Source: Rhynchopus sp. YZ270_cl-10 (Eukaryota). Taken from it: 64,000 bases of DNA. Below, one piece after another: positions 5,308-61,300 of this stretch. Within the stretch, counting starts at the first letter, position 1; each line of letters begins with the position of its first letter. The notes under the pieces are model-generated. The model had not been told where the DNA came from and made no database searches. It saw only the letters and a program-made list of their open reading frames with translations. The stretch covers positions 1,550,001 through 1,614,000 of the forward strand of contig OZ037842.1 in NCBI GenBank assembly GCA_964035575.1, written 5' to 3'. The position numbers and the translations under genes were made by a program.

Positions 5308-5342
5308 AAGGTGACTAAGCACGAGAGGCTTAGGGTCATCTT
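5308..5342 (+). repeat. Hairpin module family A, reference copy AAGGTGACTAAGCACGAGAGGCTTAGGGTCATCTT
   Basis: Identical copy at 5756-5790; variants at ~5599, 6471, 11615, 12621, 13520, 17745, 18543, 18978, 35106, 38050, 44924, 51055, 58560, 59348. Confidence 0.85.
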
Positions 5343-6932
5343 ATAAACCATTCTTCTTTTCTTTTCTGAAAAAAATTGTGTGGAGTAGTGTAGTTGCCCT
5401 CGGTTGTGTTGCCACAGTTGCGCAATCTCCACTTTTCAAAAAGTTCACTCACGAAAAGGCCTCTGATCTTTGGCCTTTCTTTTCTGAAGAATTTCTTTCT
5501 TTTTTTTTTTTATCGTGCTTGTGACCTGTTGAGGTGTCGTGTTAGCAACGTTTATAAAAAAAATTGTCCGCAGCTGACGCTGTCCGATAATTATATACAA
5601 GGTTACTAACCGAGACTTAGGATAGCATAAAAACGTTTTTTTACTGGCGGTTGCACTTTCAATTCTTTGTTTCGAGATGACTCAACACAGACTGAAGATC
5701 CTACCAACTCCGTGTTTGGTGACTTCGTCTACAGTACATCTTACCAATTGCGTTGAAGGTGACTAAGCACGAGAGGCTTAGGGTCATCTTATAATTTTTT
5801 TCTTTGTTTCCGTTTCCGCTCTTTTTTGTGTTGTACACTGTCGCGCCTCACGCTCACTTTTCTTTTTTCTTTTTATTTGTAAGGCGTTTGCACTTTTATC
5901 TCTTTGTTCCTCTTCCAACGTAAATACCCGCAACTTTTTTTTTGGGTGGACAAAACTCCGTCTATTGAAAATATTATCTTATTCATTTTTGGCTTCAGTG
6001 CATTTTCGAGTGGGTGCACGTTAGTCAATGCTTTCATAAAACACTTCGTATTGAAGCCCTCAGTCCCCTACCCCCAAGTGGGCACTCAGGCGATGGTCGA
6101 TTCAATGAAATAGGTGGAAACCTGTTCAGTTGATCGCCAAGTTTTCAAAAAAAAAAAAAAAATGCTCTTTAGGGTTGACGGCTACTGCGTCTATACCTTC
6201 CTTAATACAAAGGCTTCAGTCAACATTGACCTGAGTTACCCCACTGAGGTGGATACTTAGGCGATTGTCGACAACAAAAAAAGGAAAAATGCACCAAAAA
6301 AAAAATGAAGCAAATCTTCCACACAAACGTTTACCTCCCCTCCCATTTTTTTCTGATTTCAGCATGAAAAGCAAAAAAGCAAGAAAGAACAAACAAACAA
6401 AGCAACAAAAGTAACTTTGTGATCTGGGGTTTTTGGGTATAGAGAAACCCCATGCAGCATTCCTCTTTGGAAGGTGAGGCTCACACAGTGGGGCTAGACT
6501 TCATCTTACCAATATTTTTCTTTCTTTTCTTTTTTGCGATCTTTCAAAATAAGGACCCAGCTTTTTTTAACAACCCCTTCCACGGTAATATAACAACGAT
6601 CTAACACCCCACCCCTCCTTTTTTACCTCTCCTCTCTCCCTCCGAAATTCTGTTTCAGCCACAGTTTTGCCCATGCACACTTCGCATATCGAAGTGCTCT
6701 CAGGGGTTCAACAATTCGCGGTGAAAACCCCTATCCTACCCCCATGTTCTTTCCCCTGATCTATGGACATCACAGGACACTTTTGAAGACGAAGTTAATG
6801 ATAGGATCGAGATTCGGACTGAACGTCGTAGGAATCTTATCAATCTTTTTCTTTATTTCCTTTTTGTTGTTGCACACTTTATTTTCCCCTCCTCCCCCTC
6901 CCCCATCTAACCAATCCAGGGCAACACACACA

Positions 6933-8169
6933 ATGGATACTTTTCCCATAGAATTATCGAGTTTGAAGTTGGTCGAATGGATCAGCGCACGGTCTGAGAT
7001 GTACAAAGCTCATTCGGATTTTGTAGAAGTGAAGGGGAAGGCGGTGACGATGATACAACTGGTGAAGCATGAACTGGGGGGGTCGAGAAAGATAATACAG
7101 AAGGCGAAGAAGGCTGCAGCGGATGCGGAGAAACGCGAGAAGGCGCATATGCAGTCGGTTGCAAAGCTGGAGCAGGAGCTGGCAGGTCTGATCGCAAGCA
7201 TGGGGCTGTCAGAGGAGGACAGCACCGAAGCTGCCCTCCTGCACCACGCAGAGGTTACCCTCCGTGCACACCACACCACCGTCGCAACGTCGCTGTCAAA
7301 GCTAGAAGCTCCTCTCCAATCATTTCAAAAATTTGTCCAAACCGGTCCAGAACCCTTAAAGACGCTGCAGTTTTGCATGGCGTACGGTGTATTGTACACA
7401 CCAGAAGCGTGTGCGGCATTTGTTCAGAAAGGTGTGGAGCCAGAGGAGATGCAAGTCTCAACCCTATTCAGTGCGAAAAGGGAGGAAGAAAAGGGAGAGA
7501 CGGAGCAACAAAGTGGTGTTGCAGACGCGGATTGGGACCTTCTGCTTGCGGGAGAAGAGGGTGGGGGTGGTGATGTTGAAGAGGACAAATGGATGCAGTG
7601 CATGCATGTGGCGGAGGCAGCTGCGACAGACAGCACCGTGCTGACGGAGAAAGACGCCAGGTATGACAGCTTTCTTTATTAGGTATTGCGAGAGGGTTTG
7701 TGTACGACATTTTTTAGCTGAATTCAGATTCTACGGTTTGACTTTCAAAACACCACACAGAGTGCTTCTTCTGGACGACCTGAACGAGCTGTTGTACTTC
7801 ATGAAACAGCGTGCTGTGGAGGGTGATGTTGTGTCGAAGACTCAGTTGCCTCTTGTGGAGTCTGTGGTGGAGCAGGTGGGTGGGGCTGTGTTTGAGGACT
7901 TGCTGCTGCGCTTCTCCTCACGCGCGCATCGAGAGGCAAGCCTGCGGGGGCTGAAGCAGAAGCAAAGCGAGCTGGAGCGCATGAACACCTTGGCACAGCG
8001 CGATCGTGACGCAATGATGCAGGCTGCCCTCGAGCAGTCCGCTGCATCAGACGCTGTGGACGCTCTCATACCCCGTGCACGTGACCTCAAAGCATACCTA
8101 GAAGAACATCTCTCCGTATGGACTCACCCAAAAGACGTTCACCTCATTGGCGAGCTCAGCCGCTTATGA
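6933..8169 (+). CDS. CDK5RAP3: CDK5RAP3/C53-like protein (DUF773); exons 6933-7660, 7761-8169
   Basis: N-terminal 'PIELSSLKLVEWISAR', central 'RVLLLDDLNELLYFMKQR' and C-terminal 'VHLIGEL' match the C53 pattern; acidic linker with 'ADWD'. Intron 7661-7760 (GTATGA...CACACAG) joins the two ORFs in frame. Confidence 0.75.
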
Positions 8170-8249
8170 AGCAAGTGTGTATCGGGTGGGAAAGGGGGAT
8201 GTGCCCTCTTTAGCAAAAACAAAAGTAAAAAGTAAACGTAAAAGAAAAA

Positions 8250-9120
8250 AATGGTAAAGTGTGGTTTTCTCTCGGTACACTGTTCATAATCCGTCTGGCC
8301 AAAAGCGCCGCCGTTTCTATAGAAATGTGCCCAACGCTTGACCAACATACATCGAGTTGCTGAGAACTCTCCTCGTTTCCAACAGTACGACGCCCATCAA
8401 AAACCCCAAAAGCCCGGAAAATGGGTGCGTCGTCAAGCTTCGCTTTGACCTCTTCAATCAGCTCGTCGAGGTACGGCCTTCCGTGCGTGTCGTGGAAGAC
8501 GCGCACGTGTTCCTGAGTGAGGGGAGCAATCCCTTCCCAAGCGTCGGAGATGACGACGTGCGCAGACCAGTACAACGGTTCGTTCCGGATGATCACACAA
8601 GGCTTTGATCTTGGCGATATAGTGCTTGCACAACATGGGAAGCGCAAACAGGCAGAAACGACACCGTAGAAAACCCACTCTCCACCTCAACGGTCGATGG
8701 TGAAGAAACCAGGACGGCCTCGAGGATGGAAGCAAGATCCTCTTTCGCCTGGTCACTGGGGTTCTCTCCACACACGAACCCTGCTGCAGCTGCACAAGGA
8801 TCGCCTTCCGTCTCCGTCTTCCAGTGCCGCCAACTGGCAAGTAGCCCATACTTCCGGGCTGTCGCGATTTGCATGCTTTGGAGACCATCAACGACTTTGC
8901 CTGTTCAACGACGGACTTCTCGGATGTCAGCAGTCTTGCAAGCTGAATTACTCCGAGTGCCTGTTCCACCGCATCTTCAGGTTCCTCTTGCACCCATTCG
9001 CCAAGGAAGCGCGCCATTCCTTAACATGGATGGAGTCTTTGATGCTATCGTCGATACCTTCAAGGCTGCCTCCTAAATACCCCCAGCTTGTTCAAGTACA
9101 GTCTTTAATGGGCCTTTGAG
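8250..9120 (-). pseudogene. Degenerate hAT-like (ZNF862-type) transposase fragments
   Basis: Broken minus-strand frames carry 'LASILEAVLVSSPSTVEVESGFSTV' (like the hAT dimerisation motif P.ST..CERGFS) and 'YLDELIEEVKAKLDDAPIFRAFGVFD'. Frameshifted and opposite to the gene strand. Confidence 0.45.
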
Positions 9121-9386
9121 CCTCTTTATTACAGATTTTGAATATTTTTTCCACGCCTTTCATCTCCAGCACACTTTTTTCTTATGACCTACGAGCCTCC
9201 TTGACTCTCTCATCTCACAACCCCCCCATTCCTGCTACATAAACCTAACCTCTTCATACCCCTAGGACACACATCAAGTCTTCTCTCGCGAGAAGCACAC
9301 ACCCCAGAAGGGGGGGAGGTGCCACCCATTGTTGTCCCTCCCCTCCGACTCCTTTCTCCTTGTCTGTCATTGTCTCCTTGGCAACG

Positions 9387-12300
9387 ATGTTGCTGAAGAT
9401 CGTAGGCGATGCGGTGGCGTTGGCGCAGATCAAGGCTGCGAACCAGGAGCCGTTGATTGTTGTGGACCCGATGCTTCCGTTTTCGGACCCTAACACGAGT
9501 GCAAAGTTTGCGAGTATATTGGGGTGCGACCCAGCGTCATCGATGCACAGTCTTGGCCTGCAGATGTCTGCAGGGAACGCGACTGACCCAATGTCCGTTC
9601 CCGTAGACCTGAGCAGATCACCCCAAGAACAAGATATGCGTACAGGAACAGTGCTCTACCTGACACGTGAAAGCAGGCCCTTCGCATACCCTCTCAGCAG
9701 CCCGACCCCCACTGGAGAGCCTGCACAGATGCATGCCAGAGTGACCCCCGCAGCCCCGCATAACGATGCCTGGCAACGTTCTGCATCGTCTCCGCTTGAC
9801 TCGAGGCACGTCGCTCCCATCGTATGTTATATTGGGTAAATTGCGAGAATACGTACACAAAAAAGTGTAGCGATTTCCCCTGTCATGTTTAATTTGGTGG
9901 AAATATTGTCTTTTTTTTACAGCGTCCAACACCGCAGTTCATGTCGCAAACACCGACAACGCTGTTCCAGCCGGAGCCGAATGTGATGTATGTGAAACGT
10001 GGAGTTTTTGGAGGGAATTTTTGAAATTTAACACAGAGAGCAAACACCACGCAGCGTGCCGTGGGATGTGACCTCGCAGATGGAGGAGGCTGCAGCGAAG
10101 CGGCGTGCGCAACAGATCATGGGCGACTTTATGCGCAACAAGGGGCGTGTCACGGATTTGGAGGCGGAGCTGGACGATGCACGCAGGGAGGTGCTTGCAC
10201 ATCGGGAGACGATAGGTGGGCTGGAGCGCACGCTGCGTGACACTCAGCTGTACCGCGACGAATTGAAACACAACAACGATGACGCGGACGAGCTGCGCAA
10301 GCAGATCTACGACCTGAAGAAGGACAACCTTGAACTCCGCAAAGCGAACACACTCTACGAGCGCAAAGAGCGTGACCGGCAGGGCGAGGTCGAGGCGCTG
10401 CAGATGGGTGTCGAGTCCGCTGAGCAGCGCGGGCGTGCGTCTGTGGAGAAGCGGCTGAGCGCGACGCAGGAGGAGCTGCTCGAGGCGAAGGCGTTCATCG
10501 ATGCGCTGAAGGAGCGTCTCATTGCACAGGCGGCAGAGATGAAGAAGCTGCACGCACCGCATGCAAACGAGCCACACACAGAGCACATCATCCTGCCACC
10601 GGGCATGCTGCGCAAGCTCGTCACCGTCAACGGCGGTGGCGTGCAGTACTACCGCGAGAAGTTCAACATCGACATCACACTCCTCGACAACACCATGACC
10701 GTCACAGGTGACCCGGTCGACATCAAGCTTCTCAAGGAGGAGTGCGAGCAGACCCTCGGCCTCACAGACCCAACAGCAGTCTCGCAGGCCTTCCCCGACA
10801 CTGACATCACCAACCCCAAAGTGCAGGAGCTCATGGAGCGCGAACACGAGCTGCTTGAACTCAACGGAGAACACAGGCAACAACTCATCGCTGCGCAAAG
10901 TATGTTAAAAATAGGTGAAAAACAACAAAAAAAAAACATCACTGCAGACACGATTGACTCGCTGCACCTCGCCCTGAAGCATGCCCAAGGGCGTGTCGAA
11001 AGTGATCTAGAAAGCACAAGAGAGCTCCGAGAAGCGCAGCTCCGTGAGACGAAGAGGAAAGGAGAGGAGCTGGAAACCCTGAAGGCACACACACATACCC
11101 TGCAGAAGGAGCTTGAGGCTAAGTCCGTTGCGCTGGAGGATGCGAACAAGGCGCTGTCCAGCACGATTGAGACCTTCCAGCTCGAGTTCGAACGGTCGAA
11201 GGCGGGCAAGGATGAGCTCACGATGCTGCGCTCGCTTGTTGCGAAGAAGGACGAGGAGCTGAAGGGAGCCGTCCAGGACCACCTCCTCACCAAGAAGCGT
11301 CTGGACGAGCTGACGCTTGTCAAGCTCGACATGGAAAGGTACGTAGCCCTCCTCTGACCCACAAGAGTCAGCCACCACCACACTCTTCACACCACCCACA
11401 CAGCGACCTCACCCATAAGAAGAACCTCGTGGGCTTAGTCCCCACCCTTGAGGCCAGCTTCGCCTCCGCCAAGCTGGAGGCACAGAACACACGCGAGGAC
11501 CTTGCCTCACGCTGTGGGGAGTGGGGGGCCGAGAGGGGGATGCTCTTAGAGAAGGTATGCATCACACCACCACACCCTTCCTTTCGTGAGGTCAACTTTT
11601 CCATTGCTTTCAGACCCTTTAAACCGAGGCTTAGGTTCACCTTTATAACCCACCCACCCCCAACAGAACCAACGCATCCAAGAAGCCCTGGACACTGCGG
11701 TTGCGCAATTAGAAGAGTCACGCCGTTTGAGAGAAGACCTGCGTCTGTCACGTCTTAAGGAGGAGGAGCTGACTGCAAGGATACATGCCATGGAGTTGAA
11801 CCCTGAGAGCCAGAGGACGGCTGATCAGCAGAGGGAGATCCTTCACTTGAGGGAGGGTGCGGACCGGGCGAGCCGTGAGCGGCAGGCGCTGGTGGACTCG
11901 CTGAATGACTACAAACTGCGTTACGATACTCTGCTGACCGAAAACGAAGGTGTCAAGCGTGAGTACATCACCGCAGTCGACAACGTCACTAAGGCTGAGC
12001 TCAAGGTGGCCAACCTCTACGGCCAGATCGAGGACAGCCGCCTCACTGCCATCCACAACAGCGCTGCTGCCAATGCAGGCGACCTTGCCATGCTCCAGAC
12101 AACCGCAGTGCTGAACGCATCGACTGTTGATGCGCTCAAAGGGGAGCTCAACAACGAGGCAAGAAAGCCGTACACAATGACACCGTCGATGCCGACATCG
12201 GAGGCGGCTGCGCTGGTCGATGCCATGCGTGCTGAATTAGAATCAAAGAAGCGTCAACTCTCAAAGTCGCAGGCCCTCTTGCTCGGCAACACCAGCTCTC

Positions 12301-12500: not shown

Positions 12501-13030
12501 TTGTTTTGACAAAGAGTCAAAAATGCTGAGAAATATGCAAATAATTGGGTGTTCAAAAGGATAACCAACACCACCTCTTCGCTGATGGTGGATGTTTTAC
12601 GTATTTTTTTTTTTTTGTATAGGTGACCAGCAACGAGTCTTAGGTTCATCTTATATAAAATTTTTATCTTCAGTGCCTGAGCCCCCAGAGGATAGTTTGC
12701 ACTATCCACTTCACTTTTGACTTAGAGTGGTTGTTTCTGTTGCTCTTTCAGGAGCAGTGTGGTTGCAGTGTTGTTTGGACCTTAAAAAATTGAAAGTCGA
12801 GACGTCTGCTATGCAACTACACTACTCCAATATTATTTTTCAAAAAAAAAAAAAAAAAAAAGGAGTGAAAGAGGGTAGAACGGTGAACACCTTTTTTGAT
12901 AGTACAATACAATAAGCTTACCCTGGTAAAAATAATTGTTACGGTTTTTAGTTCTGACAAATTCAACTTCCAAACAAAACATTCAGAACATTATTTTACC
13001 ATGCGGGTCAAAATAAATTTAAATTTTGGA

Positions 13031-13486
<456 letters not shown>

Positions 13487-14544
13487 ATACTATGAAAGCA
13501 TATCACCATGTAATCAACCAAGGTGACCTATCCTGAAAGGCTTAGATCCATCTTATAAACTTTTTTTTTTGTCCCCCCCGCAATTTGAAGAAAATAAAAA
13601 TGTTCAAGTCTTTTGCAGTCTTGCCAAAAAAAATTCATCATTTCTTCAATTTCCCTATTCTTTTCCCCCCCTCCCTTAGAATGTATTTGATGTTTCTGCT
13701 GGCAGCACATACAGGAAGTCATTCCTCCCAGAAGAGAGTTGCTCGCACGGCAGAATTTGGAAGAAAAAAAAAAAGTTTCAAAGTTTTTTTTTACGCCCTC
13801 TTAGATATTTCAAAGCAATTTCACTAAAGTTTAGATGCCCCACTACGCCCCCCATGCCACCCTGTTTCCCCATTGTTCACCTTCAAAAAAAAAACAAAAA
13901 GCAAAAAAAAAAAAAACTGTAAACAAGAAAAATAACTGTGAAAACTTCGAAATGTGGCTCTCTTAATATCTGTTTTGTGTTCTGACTGAAGAGAGAGAGA
14001 GAGGAGAGTTTTTTTGCTGTCCTTCGATTTGCGCTCTTTTTAAAGATGTGAAAAAAAAAAAAAAAACAAATCATTGGCTGCTATCTTACGTAGTCTCGAA
14101 GCATTATACCAGTAGGTGTAAAGCGATTTTGTCGGTACAACAAAAACAGTGGAGATTGTACAACTGTGGCAACACAACCGAGGCATCTCCACTTCTCCAA
14201 CAATTTATCAAAAAAAAAAATATAGTGGAGCACACTCTAGGGTGGCTACACTAATACAACCAAGTTTTCAAAAAAAAAAAAAACAAATACAAACACAATA
14301 TGAGCTACCAGATCGCATTTTCCCCCGCTGTAAACAATGAGGTTGACACATAAAAGCAAAATACAAAAAAAAAACGCGTTTATGTTGCTCCACTTTCCCA
14401 TTTTTTTTCCTCTCACCCCCTCCACCTCCCCCCTTTTGAAAACCCCAAATCCACTCTTCACCCAGGACAAACCACCATATTGCACCCTATCACATAAATG
14501 GCCTAACAACCTGAAAAACCTTCTTTTTTTTTTTATCTTTAGCG

Positions 14545-17500
14545 ATGGCTGAGTACACTTTCTGGCTGCCTGTTTGCCTATTTTGCTCTGTTTTTCTTAC
14601 CCCAGCACTTTCCGTTTCATCCTGTCAGATCGGAACACCATCGTCATTGCATGTCTTCGAAGGCGATACCGTAGGGAAGGATATTTGCTGGACACATCAG
14701 TGCAGTAGATTTGCACAAATTAAATTATGGCACAACCTTCAAGGAGCGGACCTCTACAGCATACGGGTTAGTACCATAGAAGGGACGACTCTGGGTCGTG
14801 CAAGCAATATTGACTCTTTGTTCACCCAGCCTAACATCTTTGAGGTAAACGGCGCCTTCGCTATACACCATACCCCTCAAGGGGCCCTACAGACGCAGGA
14901 AATATACTACCTGGGGATGGAGATTGAGTGCATTGAGGAAGCCCCAATTGACACATCGTGCCAGGTTTTGGAGGATGTAGAAGGCTCGGTCGTGTTTTCT
15001 CAATCATCAACCAATTTTGGTGTAAAACGGTGCTGGACATTTGGCTCTTCTTGTGGGGAAATGCATTTTGCAGGGCAAACGGAGTTTATCAAGAAACCTC
15101 TCGGAGAGGGCTATCTGCATCTCGGGGTGCGTGGGGAAGGTGTGGCGGCGTCTCCAGGGGCGTTCCGTTATGAGCATCGTGGTGAGGTCGGGGATGTGAC
15201 AATAGTCTTGCAGCACCCTGAGCTCTTTTATACCGTTTTTGGCCAAGCTTTTGCCTTTGCTTATAATTGTAGTGGTGAGGCGACATTACCAAGTCTTACT
15301 CCTCCAGAGATTCCTTTTAGTTCATTTGAAAACTGTGCGGGGTAACTGCATTTCATAATGTGTTTGCATTGCAGTATGACAGTCAAATCGAGGAGACAAC
15401 CTGTTGGAATGCAGTTGCGAGCTGCTCTGGGGTTGTGTTGGTGGAGTTTTATTTGGATTTAGCTGAATTCGATGTGCTCAGTGTGTACAGTGATGGTGTG
15501 CTGGTCGATTCTTTGCAAGGAACTGCGCAGATCGCAGCACGCTACGCATCTAACAAGAGCGCCTTCACCTTCCACCTCTTTGCACCGCAGGCCCAGAGGG
15601 GTCTGTCTCACTTTGCGGCAACGGCACGATGCGTGCCAATAAGTATTCCTCAAAAAGCAGAGCAACACCAAGAATGCCAGGTCGCAGAGAAAGGGTACGC
15701 CGTGGCACGTTCGTTTTTGGGGTTTCCTGCGCATGATTTCAGATGCTACGAAGTGGTGTGCAGTGCAGTGATCATAACGCTCGATATTCAGCTCGGGGAG
15801 CAGACCCTCCAAATTGTCGACGGTGAAAGCAATGAGGTGGTGAAGAGCTTCACGGGTGTGCTGTCCGAACGGTTCAGCCTATCCTTTAACAGCACCTTCT
15901 ACGTCAGGGTGTCGAACCCTGATGGTGTGCGCGGCCACCACTACAACATTTCGTGGGAGTGCCCCGACCTCACCCCTCCGACGTTGACCCCATCTATCGG
16001 TAATGTGAACACCCCTTCGCCTCCTACCGCGTCACCTCCTTCTTTTGCACCTCCCTCTTTTTCACCTACTTCACCTTCTTCACCTGCTCCGGCTCCAACT
16101 CCACCATCGGTAAACTGTTTCGTGTTCGCCCCAGGTGGTGGTGGTGGTAATTTGTCTCAGGACGTAACAACGGCAGATGCTCTCTGCTGGGAGATGCAGT
16201 GCCCCTCGCGCCACACAATGGTCGTGCAGTACGTGGTAGCGTTGTTGCGTGATCAGAGCGTTGCGCTGAACAGCTTTGTTATAACGGGGTATCGTTCTGA
16301 AAAGGTTGTGTTCACAGAGGGGACGTTGTCTGTGGTGTACCGCCCTGGGTATGTCGACAGCGTGCTGAAGACGTCCTTCTCTTTGCAGTGGGCTTGCGAG
16401 GATCAAGCCAACACCCCAGCACCCACCTCAGGAAGAGACGGGGGCTGCACCAGCATTGCGGTGGGGGACCAATCAGGCTCGCGCCGGGTGTACCTCGACC
16501 ATGGACAGAACATTGTGGAGAGACAGTGCTGGTCGACACAGTGTTCCCTTCCGGGGGACACCTTCGAGCTGAGTGCAGTCATTGCAGGACACATCAGTCT
16601 CTTTGTACTTAAGGACAACAATATACATGAACATTTTGACGAACCTTCAACCGGCACACAACGCAACTGGCCTTCCCAGGGAAGCATTTTCACGATGGAA
16701 ATCAACTCAACGGGGGAGTCAGGCTCTGTCTGGTTTGGGTGGAGGTGCTTCCTCGAACGGACCCCTTTTCCAGACACACTTACCCCACCTGCACCGAAAC
16801 CGTACTCTTGGTGTAGCATCGATGAGGACTGTCGCACATTAGGTGACACCACTGCATCCTGCAGCGCGACGAAATGCATCTGCACGGAAAGATCCCCCCA
16901 CAGCAACCCTATCCACGAAGGGGAGGTCAACTACATTTGTGTCGACACTACGGTGCGTCCGATGACTCTGTGGTTTGAGTGGGGTGCGGTGAGTTCTGCG
17001 GAATCAGGAGATTCCTCTTCTTGCGCCACGTTGACAGCCTTTTTTATTGAAAATGAGGCAAAAATTCGGGACGCAGTGCAAGCCGACACCCCTGATGCAA
17101 CCCCCTCTGTTTCCTGCACAGATGTCAACGGCGGCCACATCGTTACCCTCCAAGCAAAGCAAAGCCTCCACCAGGTTAACATCCTACGCTTAGAAGAACG
17201 TTTTGCAGAGGTTCCTGGTACAGAAGCGCTGCCTCCCTTGGCTGGGGCAGGGGTCACCCAGGTAGACGAAGGGTCCTGTCGAGGGGACGGCATCCTCCAC
17301 GCTGCAAAGACATCAGGGGGTTGTGTCTCCCTTGAATGTCAGAACGGCTATTCCTTAGAATCAGGCCAATGTGTGGCCCCATCTACCGCGAACCCCACCG
17401 GTGTGCCTACCCCAGCTACTACCGCAATCCCGACAGGAAGTGGTACTGTGAGCCCCGAAGAAGAAACGTCCGGTGGTTCTGTGAACATTGCAGTGATCGT

Positions 17501-44906: not shown

Positions 44907-45020
44907 CAACTTTTCTTTTTTTCAAGAATTACTAAACACCAGAGGTTTAGGTTCATCTGATAAAACTTTTTTTTTTTTTGTGCAGCACTCCGGGGGGGTT
45001 CGATAAACCCACGGAGTGTC

Positions 45021-45063
45021 AGTGCCTGCGTCCCAGAGGCGTTTTGCACTATCAACTTCACTT
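45021..45063 (+). repeat. Hairpin module family D, reference copy AGTGCCTGCGTCCCAGAGGCGTTTTGCACTATCAACTTCACTT
   Basis: Variants at ~12672, 19036, 21403, 39529, 46988, 54212, 60161; 3' halves at ~5645, 5882, 39743. Confidence 0.85.
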
Positions 45064-48307: not shown

Positions 48308-48870
48308 GACCCTTTTCCCAACTACTTGCCACCTCCCTGTGGGTTGTGGCAAGTATCCACGAAGCCTACCTGATGTGGCACCCAAAAAATGGCGACCTCA
48401 TAAGGCCAACCTGAGACGGGTGTCCTGTGTTTGCAATACCTGATTATCACACCCGTATATTTTTTGTGCAGATGTGATGTGTTCCGGGAACGCAATGCCA
48501 GGTAATATCCCGCTTCACCTTTTCCATTGATAAATGTGTCCGTGAGGATAATTCATCTTTTTTCTTTTCTTTTTTGCAGATGTCCATACCCGTGAGGCCA
48601 GGACATCTTTGCTGACGTCTTATTTTGTTCCTTTTCTTTTTTGTAATACCGCTGTGTCACCCCACACCGATTATTCCAATACAAACCACACGACCCATCC
48701 AACCGGATGTGTCTCGCCATTTTTCTTTTTCATCAACTCATAAATACTGCCCTCTCTCTCCTCACCCCCTCCCCCATTGCCATCTTCCCCCATCACCCCT
48801 CTCCCCTTCCCCTCCTCTACCAGCACCAGGAAGACTCCCCATCCCCTTCCCGTTCTCTCACCCCTTTCCT

Positions 48871-50733: not shown

Positions 50734-51884
50734 AAATTTGGCATATTTTTTTTTTTTGATGCTTTTAACGATATGACAAATACGCATCATTGTACAGAGT
50801 GGTTAGCACAGTACCTTTGCGCAAAAAAAACCCCATGCGGTATAACAAGTTTTTCCACACAAGAAACCTCTAGCATGGCGTTTTTTTGGTGAGGTGCCAG
50901 CACCGCTCTCTTCTTGGTCCTTGAGGCATCAAGCCGTGGTGGCAACGCTATTGATGTATCCACCTAAGCCCTGTGGAGACCTGGGCGAGGTGGGTTCTAT
51001 TTGGATGGTAGCTGAGCAATGAGAGAGGCGCGGCTTTATAACAGCAACCCTTTCAAGGTGACTAAACGAGAGGCTTAGGTCTCTCACAAACTTTTTTTTC
51101 TTATTTTCAGGTGAAAGCGAATCCTTGGTTTGGATGTGTGCCTACACAAGAGACACATTCATTCTGGTAGTTTCTTTCAAAAAAAAAGACCGCATCGATT
51201 CTTGAGGAGAAATGAATCCGCAAACGTGGTGTACTTTTTTTGGTTTGGCGACTGCGCCAATAAAACTGTTCACTGAAAAGGGTACCATTTTTTTATCTCA
51301 ACGTGTAGATAAGGCGGTTGACTACACGTTCACCTATTTTCAAGGTAGGAAATAGTGGAGTAATGTTTTTAGAACTTACGAAAAACGAACGAAAAATAAT
51401 ATCGTTTTTTCCCTCTTGAGAATCTGAGGGAGGAGACAAAGCCAACTGAACGGATTCACCTGGGCCATAGTACAAGCAAGACGGCGTGGAGCCGTCGCAG
51501 AAAGTGCCGTACGAAACAAAATTCAAAAATTCAAAAAAATAAGTAACAAACACGCAAAAGGTCTTTCCCCCCTAACAATCCACCCCACAGATCTTAGTGG
51601 GGTCTCAAGGTTAAAAAAAAAGGGCGACGTCAACTTTCCTCTTCCACAAAATACACTCCGAAAAGCGCCAACACTCTGAGCACCCTCCGTCAGCCCCACA
51701 CAATACCAGAACCGAACGATTGTTTTTGTTCTGTTTTTTTTATTCTTTACTTTATCCATTTCCCCTTTGAACAACACCCTGCTCTCCTCCGGACCGAAAT
51801 ATCCGTTTTTTTTCCTCCTCTTCCTCCCCTCCCCCTATTACACCCCTAAAAGATACAAAGTACACAAAAAAAAAACACTACACA

Positions 51885-53612
51885 ATGGAGCTCGCACAGG
51901 CACTTTGCCGTGTTGTGACAAATGAATTTGACTGTGCATGGGAGTACATACGACCGAAGGAGACAATGGTGGTCGACGCGCCTGCAGGGAAGATGCGTGG
52001 GTACGTGCGGGACGAGGCTGTGTCGTTCCGTGGGATCCCTTACGGCGACGCTGTGTCAGGGCAGTGGAGATGGAAGGCACCCCGCCCTGCCCCAAAGTGG
52101 GAGGGTGTGCGCGACTGCAAGGACTACGCCCAATGTGCGCCGCAGGACTTCAAGGGCAATCTGCTCGCACAGAACACACACTCCGCCATCTGGACGATCG
52201 TGGAAATGGTGATTCAGATCATCTCCTGGATCTTCTTCGGCATCAAATGGAAGGGCTCCGAAGAGGAAGCGCTCTCCCTATCTGTCTACACCCCACGCAA
52301 TTACATGAAGGAGCACAACGGCAAACCCCCGGCAAAGCTTCCGGTGATGTTTTACATTCATGGAGGGTTTTATGAGGTGGGCTGCTCTGGACCTCCGATT
52401 GTGCGTGGTGAAGAGTTTCCGAAGCACGACTGTGTGTTGGTTTTGGCAAACTATCGGTTGGGGGTGTTTGGGTTTTTGAATGTTCCTGGGTGTGATACGA
52501 ACAGAGGGCTTCGTGACATGCTTCTTGGGTTGGCTTGGGTGCGTGACAACATTGATCGGTTTGGTGGAGATAAAAACAATGTCACCATTTTTGGCGAATC
52601 CGCGGGCGCCATGGCGTGCGCAAACCTTATGTCTACGCCACTCCGCTTCTACGAAGAGAACGGCGAGAAACGCTCACTCTTCCACAAACTCATCTGCATG
52701 AGCGGTGCCTCCCATGCTGTCTACTCCTCCGCAAAGAGCGAAAAGATCTACAGACAGATCCTTTCGTACCTCCCAAAGAAAACCACCGCCGCCGATTTAG
52801 ACCGCATCCCCGTCTCTCAGCTTCTCGACGCGCAGGATGCATACATGGTAAGAGAACGCATCGGGTATGCAGGCAACCACACTGCAGACAGCATTGTGAT
52901 GGGCCCGCACATCGACTCCGTGGTTCTCCCTCAGCATCCGATTGCCGCAGTGCGTGCCGGGTATGCGACTGACCTGGTTCTCATGACAGGGACAACCAAG
53001 GATGAGTTCTCGATGTTCTCCTCGCTGTTTCTGTGGCCGGTGCGGCTGTCTGATGGGTTGACTGCTAGGTTCGACTCTTGGCTGCATGGTGTGGAGGCAG
53101 AGTGCCGTGACCGCATCGTGGACTCATATGAATCCGAAGACTACTCCACCGAGTTTGCAGGGCTAGGCCACCATAAGAAGTACAACGCTGCAGCAACGGA
53201 TTGGCTCTTCAGAATCCCTTCCGAGAGGCTGGCCTGTGCACAGACTGCCGCAGGTGGGTTGGCGCACGTCTACCGTTACGACGACCACAGTACAATGTTT
53301 GGTTCCGCCTTTGGTGCCTGCCACGGTTGTGACCTCCCCGCAATGTTCGCAACCAACCGTAATGCGCCCCTAATGGTGGGAGTTCACAAAAAGATCGAAG
53401 GGACCGGTGCGTTCATGAGAAAGACCTGGACAGATTTTGCAAGGAATGGGGCCTGTACAACGGCCTGGCCTTCCTTCAGTAGCAAGTCTCGCATGATTAT
53501 GTCTCTCGCAGTGGGTGAAAATGCGAACGAAAAGAAACTCCTTGAAAACCCAGACGAAGCCTGCATCAGAGCCTGGGGGGATCTTTCGCGTTATGACTTT
53601 GTGCATGCCTAG
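51885..53612 (+). CDS. Type B carboxylesterase (COesterase, para-nitrobenzyl esterase-like)
   Basis: 'FRGIPY', 'HGGFY', 'NYRLG', 'GGDKNNVTIFGESAG', 'GTTKDE', 'GACHGCDL': full catalytic triad. Confidence 0.92.
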   Translation: MELAQALCRVVTNEFDCAWEYIRPKETMVVDAPAGKMRGYVRDEAVSFRGIPYGDAVSGQWRWKAPRPAPKWEGVRDCKDYAQCAPQDFKGNLLAQNTHSAIWTIVEMVIQIISWIFFGIKWKGSEEEALSLSVYTPRNYMKEHNGKPPAKLPVMFYIHGGFYEVGCSGPPIVRGEEFPKHDCVLVLANYRLGVFGFLNVPGCDTNRGLRDMLLGLAWVRDNIDRFGGDKNNVTIFGESAGAMACANLMSTPLRFYEENGEKRSLFHKLICMSGASHAVYSSAKSEKIYRQILSYLPKKTTAADLDRIPVSQLLDAQDAYMVRERIGYAGNHTADSIVMGPHIDSVVLPQHPIAAVRAGYATDLVLMTGTTKDEFSMFSSLFLWPVRLSDGLTARFDSWLHGVEAECRDRIVDSYESEDYSTEFAGLGHHKKYNAAATDWLFRIPSERLACAQTAAGGLAHVYRYDDHSTMFGSAFGACHGCDLPAMFATNRNAPLMVGVHKKIEGTGAFMRKTWTDFARNGACTTAWPSFSSKSRMIMSLAVGENANEKKLLENPDEACIRAWGDLSRYDFVHA

Positions 53613-54737
53613 GGATTATTTTCAACTCCAATTTTTTTTTTTTTTGCATTCCGTTTTTTTTTTGAAAGAGGGTTCACGCATCAACAGAGAACAATCATTA
53701 TCAAAATAGGGTTAGGGTTGGGGAGGGGGGCAGGAGATTGGGATGGACCTTCGTCCAACATCTTTTTGTTATTGCTCTGAGTGTGTGGTTTTCTTTTAGG
53801 TGAGAAACTTAGTTTTATTCACCAACTTTTTTCTCCGAACATCTCTTTTTTTTTTGTTTCCTTTTTACATTTTTTACATTTTTTTTTTTTGCAAACAAAA
53901 AATATTGGACGCATCTGTAGAGAGCATCTTTGTACTTTCTCTTCTTTGATTTGAAAGTATATGAGACCAATTATTTTCTTTGAATTTGAAGAGTTTCTTT
54001 CACGACGTGTGTGTCCGTGAAGACTCAATTTTAAAGTACTTCCCCACCCCCTTTTTTTGTCCCCCTTTTTTGTGTGTTATCTTTGCGAAAGTGACTTCGC
54101 CCTCCTGCCTGGACATACACCGTGTTCGGTAGACGGCTATAGTCCTTCAAAACGTTGTGGCACGTCCCAAACAGTTATTTCATATTTATTTTTTTCAAAT
54201 GAAGTGTTAGGACCTGCCTCCCAGAGGCGTTGTGCACTATCAACTTCACTTTTTCTGAATTTTATATCTTTTGAGTTTTATTGTCTTTTTTTTCTTTTTT
54301 GAATTCCAAAACAAATACATTGAAACATAAAAAGGGCGTGGGGCTCACACGAAAAAAGCGAGGTGTTCACACGTCATCAATTATTCAAAAATAAAAGCGT
54401 TTAGTATAGTGGAGTCAACTTATCCTCGGATGTCTACACTGATACAATCAAGTTTTCAAAATAAAGAAAAAAGTGTGCAATTTAGTGGCAACTCCCACTT
54501 CCAAGCAACGTATCGTTGAAATAGTATGTTGCAAATTCCTTTGTAAAGAAACCTTGAAAAGGTGTTGTGCCCATGCGCGTTCGTCTTTCAAGCATTTTTT
54601 TTTTTCCCGTTTCTTTTTCTCCAGCAAAGCCCTTTCGTTTTATCCCAGGCAAGCTGCACCATCATCTACTGTCGCAACCCTACTACTAACTGGGGAGGGG
54701 AGGAATGACACTATGTTGTTTCCTGTTTTTTTTATTA

Positions 54738-55257: not shown

Positions 55258-55259
55258 TA

Positions 55260-55606
55260 ATCATAGGGCGTATCCGGATCCAGATTCCAGGTAATTTCAG
55301 GAATTTCAGGAAAAACAAATAAAATGAAGCAGCAGATCCGAACACGACCGACGCGAGACACACGCATCAGACAACAATACAGCCGTTGCTATGTAACCTG
55401 GAGTTCACCTGGAATACACGGGAAAAAAACCTGGCATTTCGTGAAAAACATGAGAAACCTGGAATCACCTGGATCTGGATCTGGATCTGGATCTGGATCT
55501 GGATCTGGATCTGGATCTGGATCTGGATCTGGATCTGGATCTGGATCTGGATCTGGATCTGGATCTGGATCTGGATCTGGATCTGGATCTGGATACGACC
55601 CATGAT
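55260..55606. mobile_element. TA-flanked MITE (TIR ATCAT.GG.CGTATCC) with expanded (GGATCT)n in the right arm
   Basis: TA|ATCATAGGGCGTATCCGGATCCAGATTCCAGG ... CCTGG(ATCTGG)n ATACGACCCATGAT|TA; hexamer array ~55471-55594. Confidence 0.75.
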
Positions 55607-56220
55607 TAACTTTTAGAACGTGATGTTTTATCTCCATGTGAGTCACATCAAAACGTTCTAACGATTTTCTTTCACTTAAATACCGCCTTAAATTGAAAAA
55701 GAACAGTGAAGACTGTCTACATGGCAGCTACACTAATCCAAATTATTGAAGCAAAAATGGGAAATAGTGGAGTTCATCCTCGGGTGTCTGCACTAATACA
55801 ACCAAGTTTTCAAAAAAACAATGCCCACCCCCCAAATCTCGTGAATATTTCATTTTTTTCACGAGGCAACCTTTCCTCTTGGTTTCCCATTGTTTCTTTC
55901 CCTATTGAGATGAGTTGTCACCAAACCGTTAGTAGGACCGCACAGCGGCGAGAGGTAGAACGGTATGGGACCACCGTGGACGTGCTCCGCGTGGTCTGAC
56001 TTTGCTTCATCCAAAAAAAATAACAAAGCGGCAGTGAAGACGATCTAGCTTACACCATTATTCAAACAAATCGTCAAATACCACCGCTCTTTTTTTTAAA
56101 TGGTGCCGTAAAAACCTGAACTTCTGGAACGTAACATAATACGTAAAACCCCCCCTTTTTTTTTGGTCAAAATCATAAATGACCACCTGATTTTGCCCCA
56201 AAAAAAAAACCGGCTTTTGG

Positions 56221-56300
56221 CCCTATCCGGTCTATCCTTGCCCTATCCGGCCATATCCGGGCCTATCCGGACCTATCCGGACCTATCCGCGCCTATCCGC
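56221..56300. repeat. Decamer array (NCCTATCCGG-like); second direct copy at 58411-58470
   Basis: Both arrays end in CCTATCCGCGGGGT..AAAATCAG. Confidence 0.9.
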
Positions 56301-56330
56301 GGGGTCGAAAAATCAGAAAAAAACTATTTT

Positions 56331-57519
56331 TGTACTGTGTACTGTGTACTGTGTACTGTGTACTGTGTACTGTGTACTGTGTACTGTGTACTGTGTACTG
56401 TGTACTGTGTACTGTGTACTGTGTACTGTGTACTGTGTACTGTGTACTGTGTACTGTGTACTGTGTACTGTGTACTGTGTACTGTGTACTGTGTACTGTG
56501 TACTGTGTACTGTGTACTGTGTACTGTGTACTGTGTACTGTGTACTGTGTACTGTGTACTGTGTACTGTGTACTGTGTACTGTGTACTGTGTACTGTGTA
56601 CTGTGTACTGTGTACTGTGTACTGTGTACTGTGTACTGTGTACTGTGTACTGTGTACTGTGTACTGTGTACTGTGTACTGTGTACTGTGTACTGTGTACT
56701 GTGTACTGTGTACTGTGTACTGTGTACTGTGTACTGTGTACTGTGTACTGTGTACTGTGTACTGTGTACTGTGTACTGTGTACTGTGTACTGTGTACTGT
56801 GTACTGTGTACTGTGTACTGTGTACTGTGTACTGTGTACTGTGTACTGTGTACTGTGTACTGTGTACTGTGTACTGTGTACTGTGTACTGTGTACTGTGT
56901 ACTGTGTACTGTGTACTGTGTACTGTGTACTGTGTACTGTGTACTGTGTACTGTGTACTGTGTACTGTGTACTGTGTACTGTGTACTGTGTACTGTGTAC
57001 TGTGTACTGTGTACTGTGTACTGTGTACTGTGTACTGTGTACTGTGTACTGTGTACTGTGTACTGTGTACTGTGTACTGTGTACTGTGTACTGTGTACTG
57101 TGTACTGTGTACTGTGTACTGTGTACTGTGTACTGTGTACTGTGTACTGTGTACTGTGTACTGTGTACTGTGTACTGTGTACTGTGTACTGTGTACTGTG
57201 TACTGTGTACTGTGTACTGTGTACTGTGTACTGTGTACTGGGTACTGGGTACTGGGTACTGGGTACTGGGTACTGGGTACTGGGTACTGGGTACTGGGTA
57301 CTGGGTACTGGGTACTGGGTACTGGGTACTGGGTACTGGGTACTGGGTACTGGGTACTGGGTACTGGGTACTGGGTACTGGGTACTGGGTACTGGGTACT
57401 GGGTACTGGGTACTGGGTACTGGGTACTGGGTACTGGGTACTGGGTACTGGGTACTGGGTACTGGGTACTGGGTACTGGGTACTGGGTACTGGGTACTGG
57501 GTACTGGGTACTGGGTACT
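56331..57519. repeat. Heptamer satellite: ~130 x TGTACTG then ~40 x GGTACTG
   Basis: Direct reading; sharp switch at 57241. Confidence 0.97.
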
Positions 57520-58238
57520 CCTTGTAGGGTTTTGTTGCCTTTTGGCACATGAATTTTGCGCCCAGTGTTGTGTTCACTGCTCTGAAGGTGCTGGCTCTTA
57601 TCTACCGATGCATGGGGTAAGTGACACAGCGTCTGACCCGCCATCTGTAATCTTCTGGTTTCAACACTGCCTTTCAGTTCTGCATGCTGCATTCGCAGCG
57701 TCCCGAGCGTCTCACAACCTCTTATTACTCTTTGCCTGAGAAGGATGTGTTTGGACTCACTCAAACCCCGTTCATCACTCTTGTGCCAAAGAAAACATCG
57801 GACAAACAGTACAAGTTCACGGGAGCAAAGGGGTGGATCCCTCCCTCTGCGCGTATCGCACTAACGTAGCGAAGAAGATCCAGAGGTGTGCAGAACGTGA
57901 TGCGGTCTATTTTCCGACAAAAAAGACGAAGAATAGTTGTTCAATGGTGTGCTAATTTCGTCGCAAGATTTTGCAGTGGAAGTTGAAGAACACTGCAAAT
58001 GGTTCAACACAGATGAGGTTCGTCTCACAGTATTGATGTGCTCCACAACGGAAAGCCCTATCAAATATGAGAAGAGTGCTGAAGGACTCTGGGGGCATGC
58101 GGATGACAAACGATCATCTGCGGGGTGGAACAGCAGCCCGAAACTTCCACAGCCCAATCCGACTTCCTCTTCCAACCCTTTGTCTTGGAGTTTGCGAAGA
58201 AGATTGCTGCCGAGAATGAAACAGATCTCTAACGTAGC
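57520..58238 (+). pseudogene. pogo/Tigger-like (Tc1-mariner superfamily) transposase relic
   Basis: Broken + frames give 'YKFTGAKGW' (CENP-B HTH F.AS.GW-like), 'WFNTDEVRL' (first catalytic Asp, like IFNxDETGL) and 'PKLPQP', in the expected order. Confidence 0.5.
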
Positions 58239-58374
58239 TACCCAGTACCCAGTACCCAGTACCCAGTACCCAGTACCCAGTACCCAGTACCCAGTACCCA
58301 GTACCCAGTACCCAGTACCCAGTACCCAGTACCCAGTACCCAGTACACAGTGCCCAGTACACAGTACACAGTAC
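58239..58374. repeat. Inverted heptamer arm: ~14 x CAGTACC then CAGTACA units
   Basis: Reverse complement of the 56331-57519 array with mirrored subunit order. Confidence 0.95.
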
Positions 58375-61300
58375 GTATGGGGAAAATACGTGGGGTTTGG
58401 CCTGTACGGTCCTATCCGGCCCTATCCGGACCTATCCGCGCCTATCCGGACCTATCCGGGCCTATCCGCGGGGTAAAAATCAGGTGGAATGAACCCAAAA
58501 AACGTTTCAGAAGAGAGTTATGTTGGTTTTTTTTTGCACGAAACCTCCCCTTTTTTGTCAAGGTGATCAAGCACGACAGGCTTACATCTAAAAAAACTTG
58601 ATTTTGTTTTGATTGACGACAGCTGTCTATTATAGGTGGTCTGCGAACTAGCGGTCACCATCAGCTGTCTTCGTTTTCAGTTCTTTTTTTTCCCACAACC
58701 CCCTTTTTTCAGTGATTGAACTTCACTTTTTTATTCCACTTACTGATGCCCATCTGTCTCAGACCACTGAAGCAGCGGGGACACCAGATTCCACCCCCTT
58801 TTTTTTTCCCACGATGCCCAAAGCACGAGAACGCGTCTACATTTTTTGTGTATATTTCATTACGCCACAACCCACTCCCTCTTCCACCTTAGTGGTGTAC
58901 TGTGATAATTGCCTATCATACATCACAATACAGCTGTTTTGTGTATTATGTATTATGATCAACTTACAGTACAGCCACCACTATTCCACCTCCACCTCTA
59001 CCACAACCCCTTGCTGCTCGGGCACTCCGTTCGCATTCCGATCGAAGTGACAGTGTAGCCACAAGGGTAGCTTTGTGTTTATTCTGTACCAGCAGCTTGG
59101 GTGTGTCCTCTTCTGTGTCTCTTTTTGTATTAGAGACAGTGCAGTTGTTGACGTATTCAGGGAACATGCCTTAAAAGGTTTCATAAAGGGCAGGTGGGGG
59201 AGGAGGGAGCGCATCTTGTACCACCCATTTCCGCGCTTTTATATTTTAGTGATCCATCTTGTCCTTTGGAGTTCCTAATTCGGGACGTAAGGAACGTATA
59301 AAGTTTTTTTTTAGATGTGTGATAAGAGACACATTCATTAAGTTTTTAAGGTGAGGCAGAAGGGATTAAGGTTCATCTTATGATTAATTTTATTTTTTCC
59401 GTGGCGGCAGGATCATTTCTGCCTGCATCCTGTTGAGTGCATGGCTCGTAGTGAGGTGTATTTAACATCTTCGATTTGATTTTACAAGGTTGTACGTAGT
59501 GCATTCATGTTTTTTTTTAATTTTAATTTTGTTTGTTTTCTAAGATGTGTATACACTGTGCATACTGATTTTATAACTTTGCTTTTCTAAGGTGATCCAA
59601 TATGTGGCGTTTAAGTTCTTTTGATGAACTTTTCAAAAAAATAATAATGAGATCAGGTGTGTCAAACGAGGCACATTTGACTCTCAATTTTTCCTTTTTA
59701 TTTACTTTCTTTCTATTGTGCCTGCAGCGAGGTCTTCAGCGACAAATTGTGACAAAATGTATGTCTTTTTATGTGATATTTTTTTGTTGAAACGGCTCTG
59801 GTCAGTTTTTGTTTTTTTCATACATCAAACATAAAAAGTTGGTTTCAAGGGGGCCAGAATACGCTTTTATTTTTTCAACTGTATCACTGCTTTGGTACAT
59901 CCCACAAAGGCATTTCAACACCCGACAAGATTTCTTTGTTTTTTTCTTATCCCTTTTTTTTTGGGAGCTCCTGGTTACTTTCCGTCCTTAAATTAAGAAT
60001 TTACAAATAGCGAGAAGCTTGGTTCATATCTTACAATTATTTCTCTTTCTCGCAAAGGGTGCATTGTGTCTGACCCTCTCAAATACTTTCAATTCTGTGA
60101 ACTGAAAGTATATGAATCTAATTTTTTCTCTCTTCTCTCTCTCTCTCTCTCTCTCTTTTCAGTGCCTGCGTCCGGCGTTTGCACTATCAACTTCACTTTT
60201 ATAGGGTACATTTAGTGCACCCTATTATACCTTCTATTCAGTAGAATAGTTAGTATATGAAGTATATGAAACAGGGTCCTAGCTCAGTAGAACGGAAAAG
60301 GTGGCCCACCTTTTCCGTTCTTTTTTTTTTTTTTTTGGGTTTTTTTTACACGGTGCAAAAAACCGGTTGGCCAAGGAGGTCCTCAGTGTCGTCAGCCAGT
60401 CCCCTTTGCTGTTAAAAACAGCGACTTGGCGTGGTCAATTTTTCCGCGCGAACAGGGATTACGCTCCACGTGTGGAACGTATGGAAATCCATACGTGAAT
60501 TGTTTTTGAAAAGGTGGAATCCATACGTGTCCATACGTAGGTAATTTGGGTTTTGGATTGGGGCTGGGGTGGGGTAGGTGAGGAGTGGGGCTCCGCCCCC
60601 ACCTCTCACCTACCCCCTACAGAATTCTATTTGTAGGAGACAATTTTCTATTTTACCGGAAAAGGAGCATGCAGCATGGCGAAAGAAAAAAGTAGCGTAC
60701 CGTGCGCCTGCGGCGCTAGATTGCAATACACCCTTCCCATGACATAATAGGCAGTTTTAAGCGCAATTTTTAGAAATGTTGCGTACCGTGGCTTCGCCAG
60801 AAACTTTCGTTTTAGCAAAATATGGAAGTAAAGTTTACGGAACTGGACCATAGTTACCAACGAAAGTGCCATTTTATGTCAAGATTTTTTAAAAATGTTG
60901 CGTACCGTGGCTTCGCCAGGAACATTTGGATGCCATGACTGATGATTTCTCCAGTTCTTCGAACTTTCACAACCCTTCTCAACCAACTTTGCCAGGGAGA
61001 GCGCGCGCGAAGCGCGCGCGGTTTTTAATTGTTTTTGCTTAGAATTGTACGTGTTGAAAATCCATACGTACTTTTTTTATTTTTGGGGGAGCTGCGCAGG
61101 GCGTTCGCCCCGGGGCGAAAAATATTTTTTTTCGTTAAAAAAATCTTTTCCTGAAAAAATGACATTTTATTTCGCCCCAGGGCTTCGCCCCACCGGGGCG
61201 AAACCCTGTATAAATAAATAAATAAATAAATAAAAAAAGGGGGAAAAAAAAAAAAAAAGAGAGAGAGAGATTTCTCCCCACCACCCTGTAGACCCCCCCG

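Follow-up and report, generated by a model that had tools for sequence, protein, structure and literature searches.

Short sense-oriented hairpin repeats in a diplonemid gene cluster: candidate miniature retroposon-like elements

The window analysed here is the whole stretch of 64,000 nucleotides (nt) at positions 1,550,001 to 1,614,000 of contig OZ037842.1 of Rhynchopus sp. YZ270_cl-10. Every delimitable gene in this 64-kb window lies on the + strand, and the DNA between the genes contains short hairpin modules that belong to related families and are almost all in the sense orientation. We place the host among the diplonemids because the tetratricopeptide-repeat (TPR) protein encoded at 28644-30008 is 60% identical to Diplonema papillatum DIPPA_59178 (identity in its other close matches is 47-63%). 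The one-strand gene clusters, GT-AG introns and long 3' untranslated regions (UTRs) are also like those of D. papillatum. The parts of PMC10161547 drawn on here describe that genome as having one-strand gene clusters, 3' UTRs with a median length of ~800 nt, open reading frames (ORFs) of LINE-like (long interspersed nuclear element) and Helitron-like types, an RNA interference (RNAi) pathway, and nearly 10,000 dispersed repeat motifs, many without obvious origin. The same source proposes the unusually long diplonemid 3' UTRs as regulatory platforms. All positional statistics below come from this one window, with gene ends set by eye.

A sequence-only reading of the window had described at least six hairpin families in several dozen copies, all on the gene strand except one. 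Using nhmmer with nine family profiles seeded from the + strand of the window, we found 57 non-overlapping copies at E <= 0.01, 56 on the + strand and one on the - strand; most matches were seeds. At E <= 0.1 there are 62 copies, 60 on the + strand and two on the - strand (A 16, B 14, D 10, G 2, C 5 plus 2 minus, C2 4, H 3, E 4, F 2). The exception already seen by eye (5373-5433) is the sole clear antisense copy, a C copy at 5372-5433 that is 93.5% identical to 31745-31804 (Table 1); the second minus match (14968-15004) is weak and lies within a coding region. Locally shuffled windows gave no match at E <= 0.1 in five of five cases. In leave-one-out searches 42 of the 49 held-out copies were recovered at E <= 0.05, with no minus-strand match by the A, B, D, H or E models, up to two by C and up to one by C2; therefore the strand bias is not an artefact of seeding on the + strand. 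Base composition does not explain the 56:1 ratio either, because runs of at least five T or five A are nearly equally frequent on the + strand (217 vs 163 over 28,689 intergenic bases), and the sense bias holds for T-tailed and A-tailed families alike. A rough covariance model of A, B and G (R1), built on a 30-copy MAFFT alignment in which A and B are misregistered, gave 30 + and 1 - matches at E <= 1; RNAalifold predicted no pairs on this misregistered alignment.

The modules occupy 2,393 of the 28,689 intergenic nt (about 8%), and listed copies are present in 14 of the 16 intergenic regions, in line with the earlier impression that they follow or separate nearly every gene. Further degenerate A/B-like hairpins lie below the profile threshold at 41559-41612, 46867-46906, 48468-48520, 59542-59575, 59654-59685 and 5718-5745 (by eye or stem parser), and the true module density is higher than counted. 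The Rfam comparison that had been suggested for the modules connected them to no known RNA family: no match reached the gathering threshold, and the 19 weak matches all fall outside the listed modules. No tRNA call falls on a module either, and nothing like a SINE head (short interspersed nuclear element) derived from tRNA, 5S or 7SL RNA, with an internal RNA polymerase III (Pol III) promoter, was found among the tRNA calls and Rfam matches. ARAGORN called a tRNA-Val at 15897-15987 on the minus strand; it lies within a coding region and is probably spurious.

The modules are 30-75 nt long, and the eight families that were folded (all but F) form hairpins. In most of the folded families a closing stem is followed by a short tail ending in AAC and then by a T run (A, B, G and D) or an A run (C, C2, H and E). 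A, B and G align as one group, with a lower stem in which AAGRTG pairs with a CATCTT-like arm, a bulge on the 3' side (pyrimidine or GG), an upper stem that often has a bulged A, a purine-rich loop, and a 4-6-nt tail closing in AAC or AAG before the T run. In C, C2 and H the closing stem pairs AGTGRAG with CTRCACT, with one conserved mismatch, around an interior of very variable length, and the tail and A run follow. Family D has an AGTG/CACT closing stem, as in the C group, and a CAAC tail, but a T end. Its long form carries an additional 5' palindrome, which ends about 42 nt from the 3' end; past it comes another stem-loop, at 11 nt from that end. By eye, D and C2 resemble each other in their 3' arms, which suggests that they form one superfamily; family E closes differently.

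The sequence-only reading had the stems conserved and the loops free to vary. This describes the interior of C, C2 and H well. In the T-tailed families the loops are not free, because 11 B/G copies have the loop cGNRAg, in which G and A are invariant, the third base is always a purine and N alone varies, and because the motif YGNRAG occurs in 16 of the 38 T-tailed copies compared to 5.7% of background windows. The stems are only slightly better kept than the loops (substitutions against the consensus 15.8% vs 21.6%, p = 0.05; 32 copies of A, B and D). A possible similarity between the core of the apical loop and the sarcin-ricin loop of rRNA was dropped after a motif scan led to 13 viral-contig loci, four of which, when aligned, and three, when scanned, were not recognised as rRNA.

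The flanks differ between the two tail classes. T-tailed copies have 55% T before and 60% T after the module; copies of C, C2, H and E have 41% A before vs 78% behind, and this one-sided A run resembles a poly(A) tail. The + strand folds better in 31 of the 38 T-tailed copies, an advantage not seen in the A-tailed ones (9 of 14). Family G folds at about -7 kcal/mol as RNA; the value for DNA is about -0.3, and for the opposite strand -0.9. An automatic stem parser, which mis-anchored several copies, counted 45 G.U against 9 A.C in lower stems; these are mostly family consensus, and we do not use them as independent evidence.

Outside the window, we used eight read sets that behave as DNA contigs (even cover over introns and intergenic DNA); the Logan contigs of the DNA runs apparently come from the same strain as the window (long pieces with 0 differences). 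In read set X4 the single-copy depth is near 140, compared to summed depths of 1.02 million for G and 1.47 million for D. This corresponds to roughly 230-7,300 copies of G and 340-10,500 of D, ranges that allow for up to 31-fold overcounting through overlapping contigs and give an order of magnitude, not a count. Both families are still high-copy at 97% likeness. Contigs run into unrelated T-rich sequence behind the module in 104 cases for G and 110 for D, and before it in 54 cases for G. Module orders seen elsewhere in the genome (B-G, B-D, G-D and D-G) do not occur in the window, and within the window the modules are chained: 11 of 54 gaps are <= 20 nt, compared to 2.3 expected (maximum 8 in 2000 placements). 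The modules are thus dispersed, genome-wide repeats in related families, with many different flanks and a changing chain order. The tail pattern of D was found neither in viral contigs nor in metagenome contigs (0 in each). On three TPR-related loci, model R1 gave nothing better than E 1.6; one of them (L001) has almost no flank, and the other two (L002 and L003) are 34% identical and compact.

Covariation, which the sequence-only reading had proposed as a check, was found between subfamilies and not within family A. Against shuffle controls, B plus G have 13 compensatory cells vs 6.3 (reached by 0 of 500 shuffles) and the C group 3 vs 0.5 (2 of 500). In the 10 copies of A, pairing is 76.2% vs 76.9% in shuffles, with 1 compensatory cell vs 1.1. 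Among single stem changes in A, B and D (32 copies), 67 break a pair and 24 keep it, and the numbers leading to G.U (20) and A.C (22) match the neutral expectation. Two of the window copies fold less stably (-9.8 and -16.5 kcal/mol) than the corresponding genome-majority alleles (-11.3 and -22.7 kcal/mol). The source subfamilies keep an RNA-type fold, with G.U pairs, the GNRA loop and compensatory changes. Such a pattern, in which structure persists across source lineages and decays in the copies they gave rise to, is what mobile elements show. Compensatory changes between subfamilies would be expected if selection acted on structure in source copies alone, and most copies are likely to be unselected relics.

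Relative to the genes, eight copies lie within 180 nt after a stop codon (6.6 expected), which is no enrichment. The last 180 nt before start codons contain none (6.6 expected) and the last 250 nt only one (9.1 expected), a depletion that removal of insertions close to the trans-splicing acceptor would produce. Modules had been claimed for three introns, of which one stands: the A copy near 11615 lies in a well-supported GT-AG intron (11555-11666) that is the only frame-keeping join. At 30039-30085 there is a partial C copy, with ambiguous intron ends, and 28416-28446 folds and has no family match at E <= 0.1. Other introns listed by eye had inexact ends and are left out of account. Copies can also be compared in a duplicated gene (45688-46647 and 47348-48307), whose coding parts are 99% identical and whose 3' regions are ~20-25% diverged. 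The B copy at 46686 lies opposite a 35-nt gap in the 3' region of the second duplicate. A paralogous B pair (47033 and 48578) differs at 5 of 37 sites, compared to 17 of 89 in the neighbouring alignable block, so that the divergence of this shared copy is similar to that of its surroundings. The duplicates are in tandem and their products are cysteine-rich and secreted-looking; read depth at the pair is several-fold above single copy, which suggests more gene copies than were assembled. Palindromic inserts resembling MITEs (miniature inverted-repeat transposable elements) lie at 38280-38508, 38982-39079, 44183-44328 and 26088-26182, and three of them abut or split modules: inserts interrupt an E copy and a C-like copy, and the tail of a G copy adjoins another.

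We propose, with a probability of about 0.5, that the modules are miniature retroposon-like elements whose hairpin is a handle for reverse transcriptase. The gene cluster would be transcribed as one long RNA, and any sense copy in it could serve as a template without a promoter of its own. A LINE-type reverse transcriptase would bind the hairpin and use the A or U run directly after the tail for priming; copying would be limited to the hairpin unit, sometimes with a neighbour, and would be directed into A- or T-rich targets. Insertion would often take place beside an older copy, and we propose that the chains arose because new copies did so. GNRA loops, G.U-rich stems, the better-folding + strand of T-tailed copies and the one-sided A runs all point to an RNA step. 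Stringent LINE proteins are known to bind a stem-loop plus a short tail, in the form of a two-stem hairpin with a specific loop (parts of PMC4176376). The sequence-only reading had offered two interpretations, a cis code at the RNA level and fragments of a SINE-like parent, with the Leishmania SIDERs (short interspersed degenerated retroposons) as precedent. The second fits our results, and the first is weakened by the lack of covariation in A, the neutral stem changes and the lack of enrichment past stop codons. We consider it probable that the modules are relics rather than a code, whether they were copied by the RNA route, by rolling-circle transposition or locally. Some copies may since serve as putative 3'-UTR signals.

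Orientation is the weakest part of the proposal. It would call for either strand-selective insertion into transcribed DNA or the removal of antisense copies, and removal could follow if an antisense copy paired with thousands of sense copies in an RNAi-competent cell. D. papillatum has a full RNAi set (parts of PMC10161547). That the single antisense copy is young fits removal, as one case only. A reading as antisense, L1-like copies with a poly(A) tail was rejected, as the minus strand folds poorly.

Several observations weigh against retroposon-like elements. Ordinary retroposition alone does not predict 56:1. We recognised no parent element or reverse transcriptase ORF in the window. Target-site duplications do not exceed chance (33 T-tailed copies, p = 0.36; 10 A-tailed copies, p = 0.55); an apparent signal at p = 0.003 arose from mixing the two classes and is gone within them. 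T on both sides of A, B, G and D (55% and 60%) is less typical of LINE tails than of Helentrons. Short D copies begin at a recurrent point (45016-45021), for which reason we dropped random 5' truncation of D. Among the joints listed in the DNA runs of apparently the same strain, none skips exactly one module and there is no clean empty site; the gap opposite the B copy at 46686 lies in 20-25% diverged DNA and is not an exact empty site. The folding advantage of the + strand is partly compositional (67% in shuffled copies, p = 0.036), and the covariation controls ignore relatedness and use 10-13 hand-picked copies.

The modules might instead be a host code in RNA, with the hairpins as binding sites in 3' UTRs and pre-mRNA that set cleavage and polyadenylation, stability or translation, spread by duplication and kept in sense by selection. 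Such a code would account for the 56:1 orientation, for the copies in 14 of 16 intergenic regions, and for the GNRA loops and compensatory changes between subfamilies; if the ~800-nt median of D. papillatum (parts of PMC10161547) is a guide, most copies probably lie within 3' UTRs, and the SIDERs are a precedent (parts of PMC2689281). We nevertheless judge it unlikely, as pairing in A is at the level of shuffled copies without covariation, single changes to G.U are as frequent as those to A.C, the start of the 3' UTR is not enriched, a sense copy sits in a well-supported intron, inverted-repeat elements abut or split copies, near-identical gene duplicates differ in copy content, and module order varies freely. 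Clustered small-RNA genes, such as single-hairpin guide RNAs released from polycistronic transcripts, would also explain the sense orientation and the hairpin followed by a short conserved tail. This is very improbable: Rfam has no match, 30-45 nt is short, and the copies decay.

The modules might also be relics of rolling-circle (HUH) elements: minimal units of Helentron/HINE-like or REP-like type that moved as single-stranded DNA and entered T runs. Such units could acquire the sense bias directly if they inserted into the non-template strand while it is displaced or, at forks co-directional with transcription, into the template of the lagging strand. T on both sides, no target duplication and a stem-loop 4-11 nt from the 3' end are as in HINE (parts of PMC4067079 and PMC11417382), long D has the geometry of a collapsed HINE, the module ends are fixed, and D. 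papillatum has Helitron-like ORFs (parts of PMC10161547). On the other hand, in A, B, G and C no conserved terminal inverted repeat lies upstream of the hairpin, as DNA the young G family hardly folds, C, C2, H and E carry one-sided A runs, and the parts of PMC4067079 and PMC11417382 consulted describe no strand bias for HINE; we therefore hold this origin to be unlikely. If, finally, hairpin-plus-homopolymer units were copied between UTRs without a transposase, by template switching, RNA-templated repair or gene conversion, it would be natural that both identical pairs are close together in the window (A5308/A5756 and G38235/G39365) and that fused, tandemly duplicated partial copies occur at 18544-18632, and RNA-templated repair in cis would preserve the sense orientation. 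Purely local spread is improbable in view of the more than 100 unrelated flanks of G and of D, their high copy number at 97% likeness, and the sharp recurrent ends.

Table 1. Hairpin modules listed in the window. Coordinates are window positions; the basis of most rows is the nhmmer family profiles.
Position	Strand	Module	E-value or other basis
5276-5305	+	F, chained to A	
5308-5348	+	A, best-preserved; core identical to 5756 copy	
5372-5433	-	C, sole clear antisense copy	E 7e-17
5569-5597	+	F	
5756-5794	+	A	
5880-5896	+	D 3' remnant, weak	E 0.044
6050-6110	+	E	
6224-6280	+	E with A run	
6471-6512	+	A, degenerate	
11611-11649	+	A, within intron 11555-11666	
12620-12656	+	A, chained to D	
12670-12715	+	D, short form	
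12812-12841	+	C, 3' half	E 0.014
13520-13559	+	A	
14095-14272	+	Chain E (14095-14145) - C (14148-14212) - C2 (14224-14272), A-run joints	
17745-17784	+	A	
17994-18058	+	C	
18544-18632	+	Fused chain: partial A, partial A, B (18596-18632)	
18973-19082	+	Chain A (18978-19011) - D (19034-19082)	
21368-21436	+	D, long form, extra 5' palindrome	
25650-25685	+	B	
28416-28446	+	A/B-like hairpin, below family threshold	folds
30039-30085	+	Partial C, in possible intron	
30324-30362	+	B	
31673-31809	+	Chain H (31676-31732) - C (31745-31809)	
35106-35142	+	A, 5 nt past stop codon	
35560-35610	+	E with A run	
38048-38086	+	A	
38235-38270	+	G; tail adjoins inverted-repeat element 38280-38508	
39365-39400	+	G, core identical to 38235	
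39527-39570	+	D, short form	
39735-39770	+	D, 3' part	
39825-39858	+	B	
42620-42644	+	A/B-like, weak	E 0.087
43319-43360	+	B	
44165-44354	+	E, split by palindromic insert 44183-44328	
44612-44650	+	B	
44874-45062	+	Chain B (44875-44910) - A (44929-44964) - D long form (44986-45062)	
45318-45356	+	B, degenerate	
46686-46719	+	B; no counterpart in paralogous 3' region of duplicated gene	
46988-47068	+	Chain D (46988-47020) - B (47033-47068)	
48528-48611	+	Chain B (48529-48561) - B (48578-48611, paralogue of 47033)	
51055-51170	+	A (51055-51090) and B (51132-51170)	
54207-54250	+	D	
54338-54460	+	Chain H (54340-54390) - C2 (54408-54460)	
55705-55814	+	Chain, two C2-type copies	
56027-56067	+	H/C-type, short	
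58560-58593	+	A	
59312-59383	+	Chain B (59313-59339) - A (59349-59383)	
60159-60197	+	D, short form	

The window also contains other repeats. At 56140-58520 two 7-nt tandem arrays of about 1.2 kb and 140 nt, inverted relative to each other and bordered by short CCTATCCGG-type repeats, lie around a 700-nt core with broken frames; the region looks like a foldback or microsatellite-bearing DNA element, and pieces like it at 41700-42450 are very high-copy. A separate very high-copy repeat of ~400 nt lies at 43360-43760 (summed depth 370,000 vs ~140). By eye, 60250-60330 and 61890-61960 form an imperfect inverted pair about 1.6 kb apart, which may be the termini of a relic DNA transposon. Intergenic repeats at 13035-13485 and 55465-55595 include long (GA)n and (GGATCT)n microsatellites. 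Among the genes, there is a DUF4116 repeat protein at 32154-35101, and Pfam matches identify two carboxylesterase-family paralogues at 51886-53612 and 62605-64000 with 60% DNA identity.

In the literature we searched on diplonemid and Euglena genome repeats, transposable elements and 3' UTRs, such modules are not described; Additional file 1 of the D. papillatum genome paper (repeats, UTRs) lay outside that search and may bear on novelty. The parts of bioRxiv 10.64898/2026.07.29.740908 consulted contain no treatment of such repeats. What fills the long 3' UTRs of diplonemids is likewise undescribed in the literature searched. If the modules are micro-retroposons, they would be among the shortest eukaryotic mobile units known and would show how polycistronic transcription shapes the orientation of repeats. 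Diplonemids are abundant marine eukaryotes, and the modules give defined, mutable targets in them for studying a SIDER-like route from selfish repeat to mRNA regulator. It is a tentative and rather doubtful extension of our proposal that there is a class of micro-retroelements without promoters, each consisting of no more than the 30-65-nt hairpin to which a reverse transcriptase responds. Such elements would multiply from polycistronic transcripts and insert or persist in sense only; in this way almost all 3' UTRs of diplonemids would have acquired a common, modular set of hairpins with GNRA caps, open to being read by the host as a post-transcriptional code. This would be the eukaryotic equivalent of the bacterial repetitive extragenic palindromes (REPs) and interspersed mosaic elements (BIMEs).

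The closest known systems share some of these features. SIDERs are reportedly several hundred nt long with a signature of 77-79 nt, and some are said to regulate mRNAs. SIDER1 and SIDER2 of Leishmania (ingi clade) resemble the modules in being dispersed, degenerate, located in intergenic regions or 3' UTRs of a polycistronic euglenozoan, and sense-biased, at about 4:1 in Leishmania clusters (parts of PMC2689281). The modules share the sense-biased position between one-strand cluster genes (56 of 57 in this one window), but are single hairpins of 30-75 nt with a variable chain order, a 56:1 sense ratio and also an intronic location. There is no HDV-like (hepatitis delta virus) ribozyme of the 5' signature (Pr77) among the 19 weak Rfam matches, the modules being shorter than the signature; direct repeats are not in excess, and a one-sided A run is found in C, C2, H and E only. 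The stem-loops in the 3' tails of stringent LINEs and of the SINEs that go with them (ZfL2-1, ZfL2-2 and UnaL2) likewise have a lower and an upper stem, a specific loop and a short tail, and the element protein recognises the loop and stem (parts of PMC4176376); the modules differ in being lone stem-loops without a Pol III head or LINE body, many of them ending in T runs.

HINE/DINE-1 elements, which are non-autonomous Helentrons (HLE2), have T-rich targets, T at both ends, no target duplication and a 3' stem-loop close to the end (parts of PMC4067079 and PMC11417382). The T-tailed families fit them by composition and long D loosely by geometry, but the modules are far shorter, have an RNA-type fold, include A-tailed families and show a strict strand bias. 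The 12-15-bp subterminal inverted repeats of HINEs and Helentrons (the 3' one 38-60 nt from the end) are absent in the A, B, G and C groups, and only long D has a comparable palindrome. The modules do not look like MITEs, as their conserved tail is on one side of the stem only, no target duplication was detected and their orientation is 56:1. Bacterial REPs and BIMEs are tiny high-copy hairpins that lie between co-transcribed genes and form chained mosaics. REP units are typically in inverted pairs and in both orientations, whereas the chains here run head-to-tail on one strand in a eukaryote. We think it most likely that the modules are dispersed repeats of retroposon origin, in an undescribed variant that is very short and restricted to the sense orientation.

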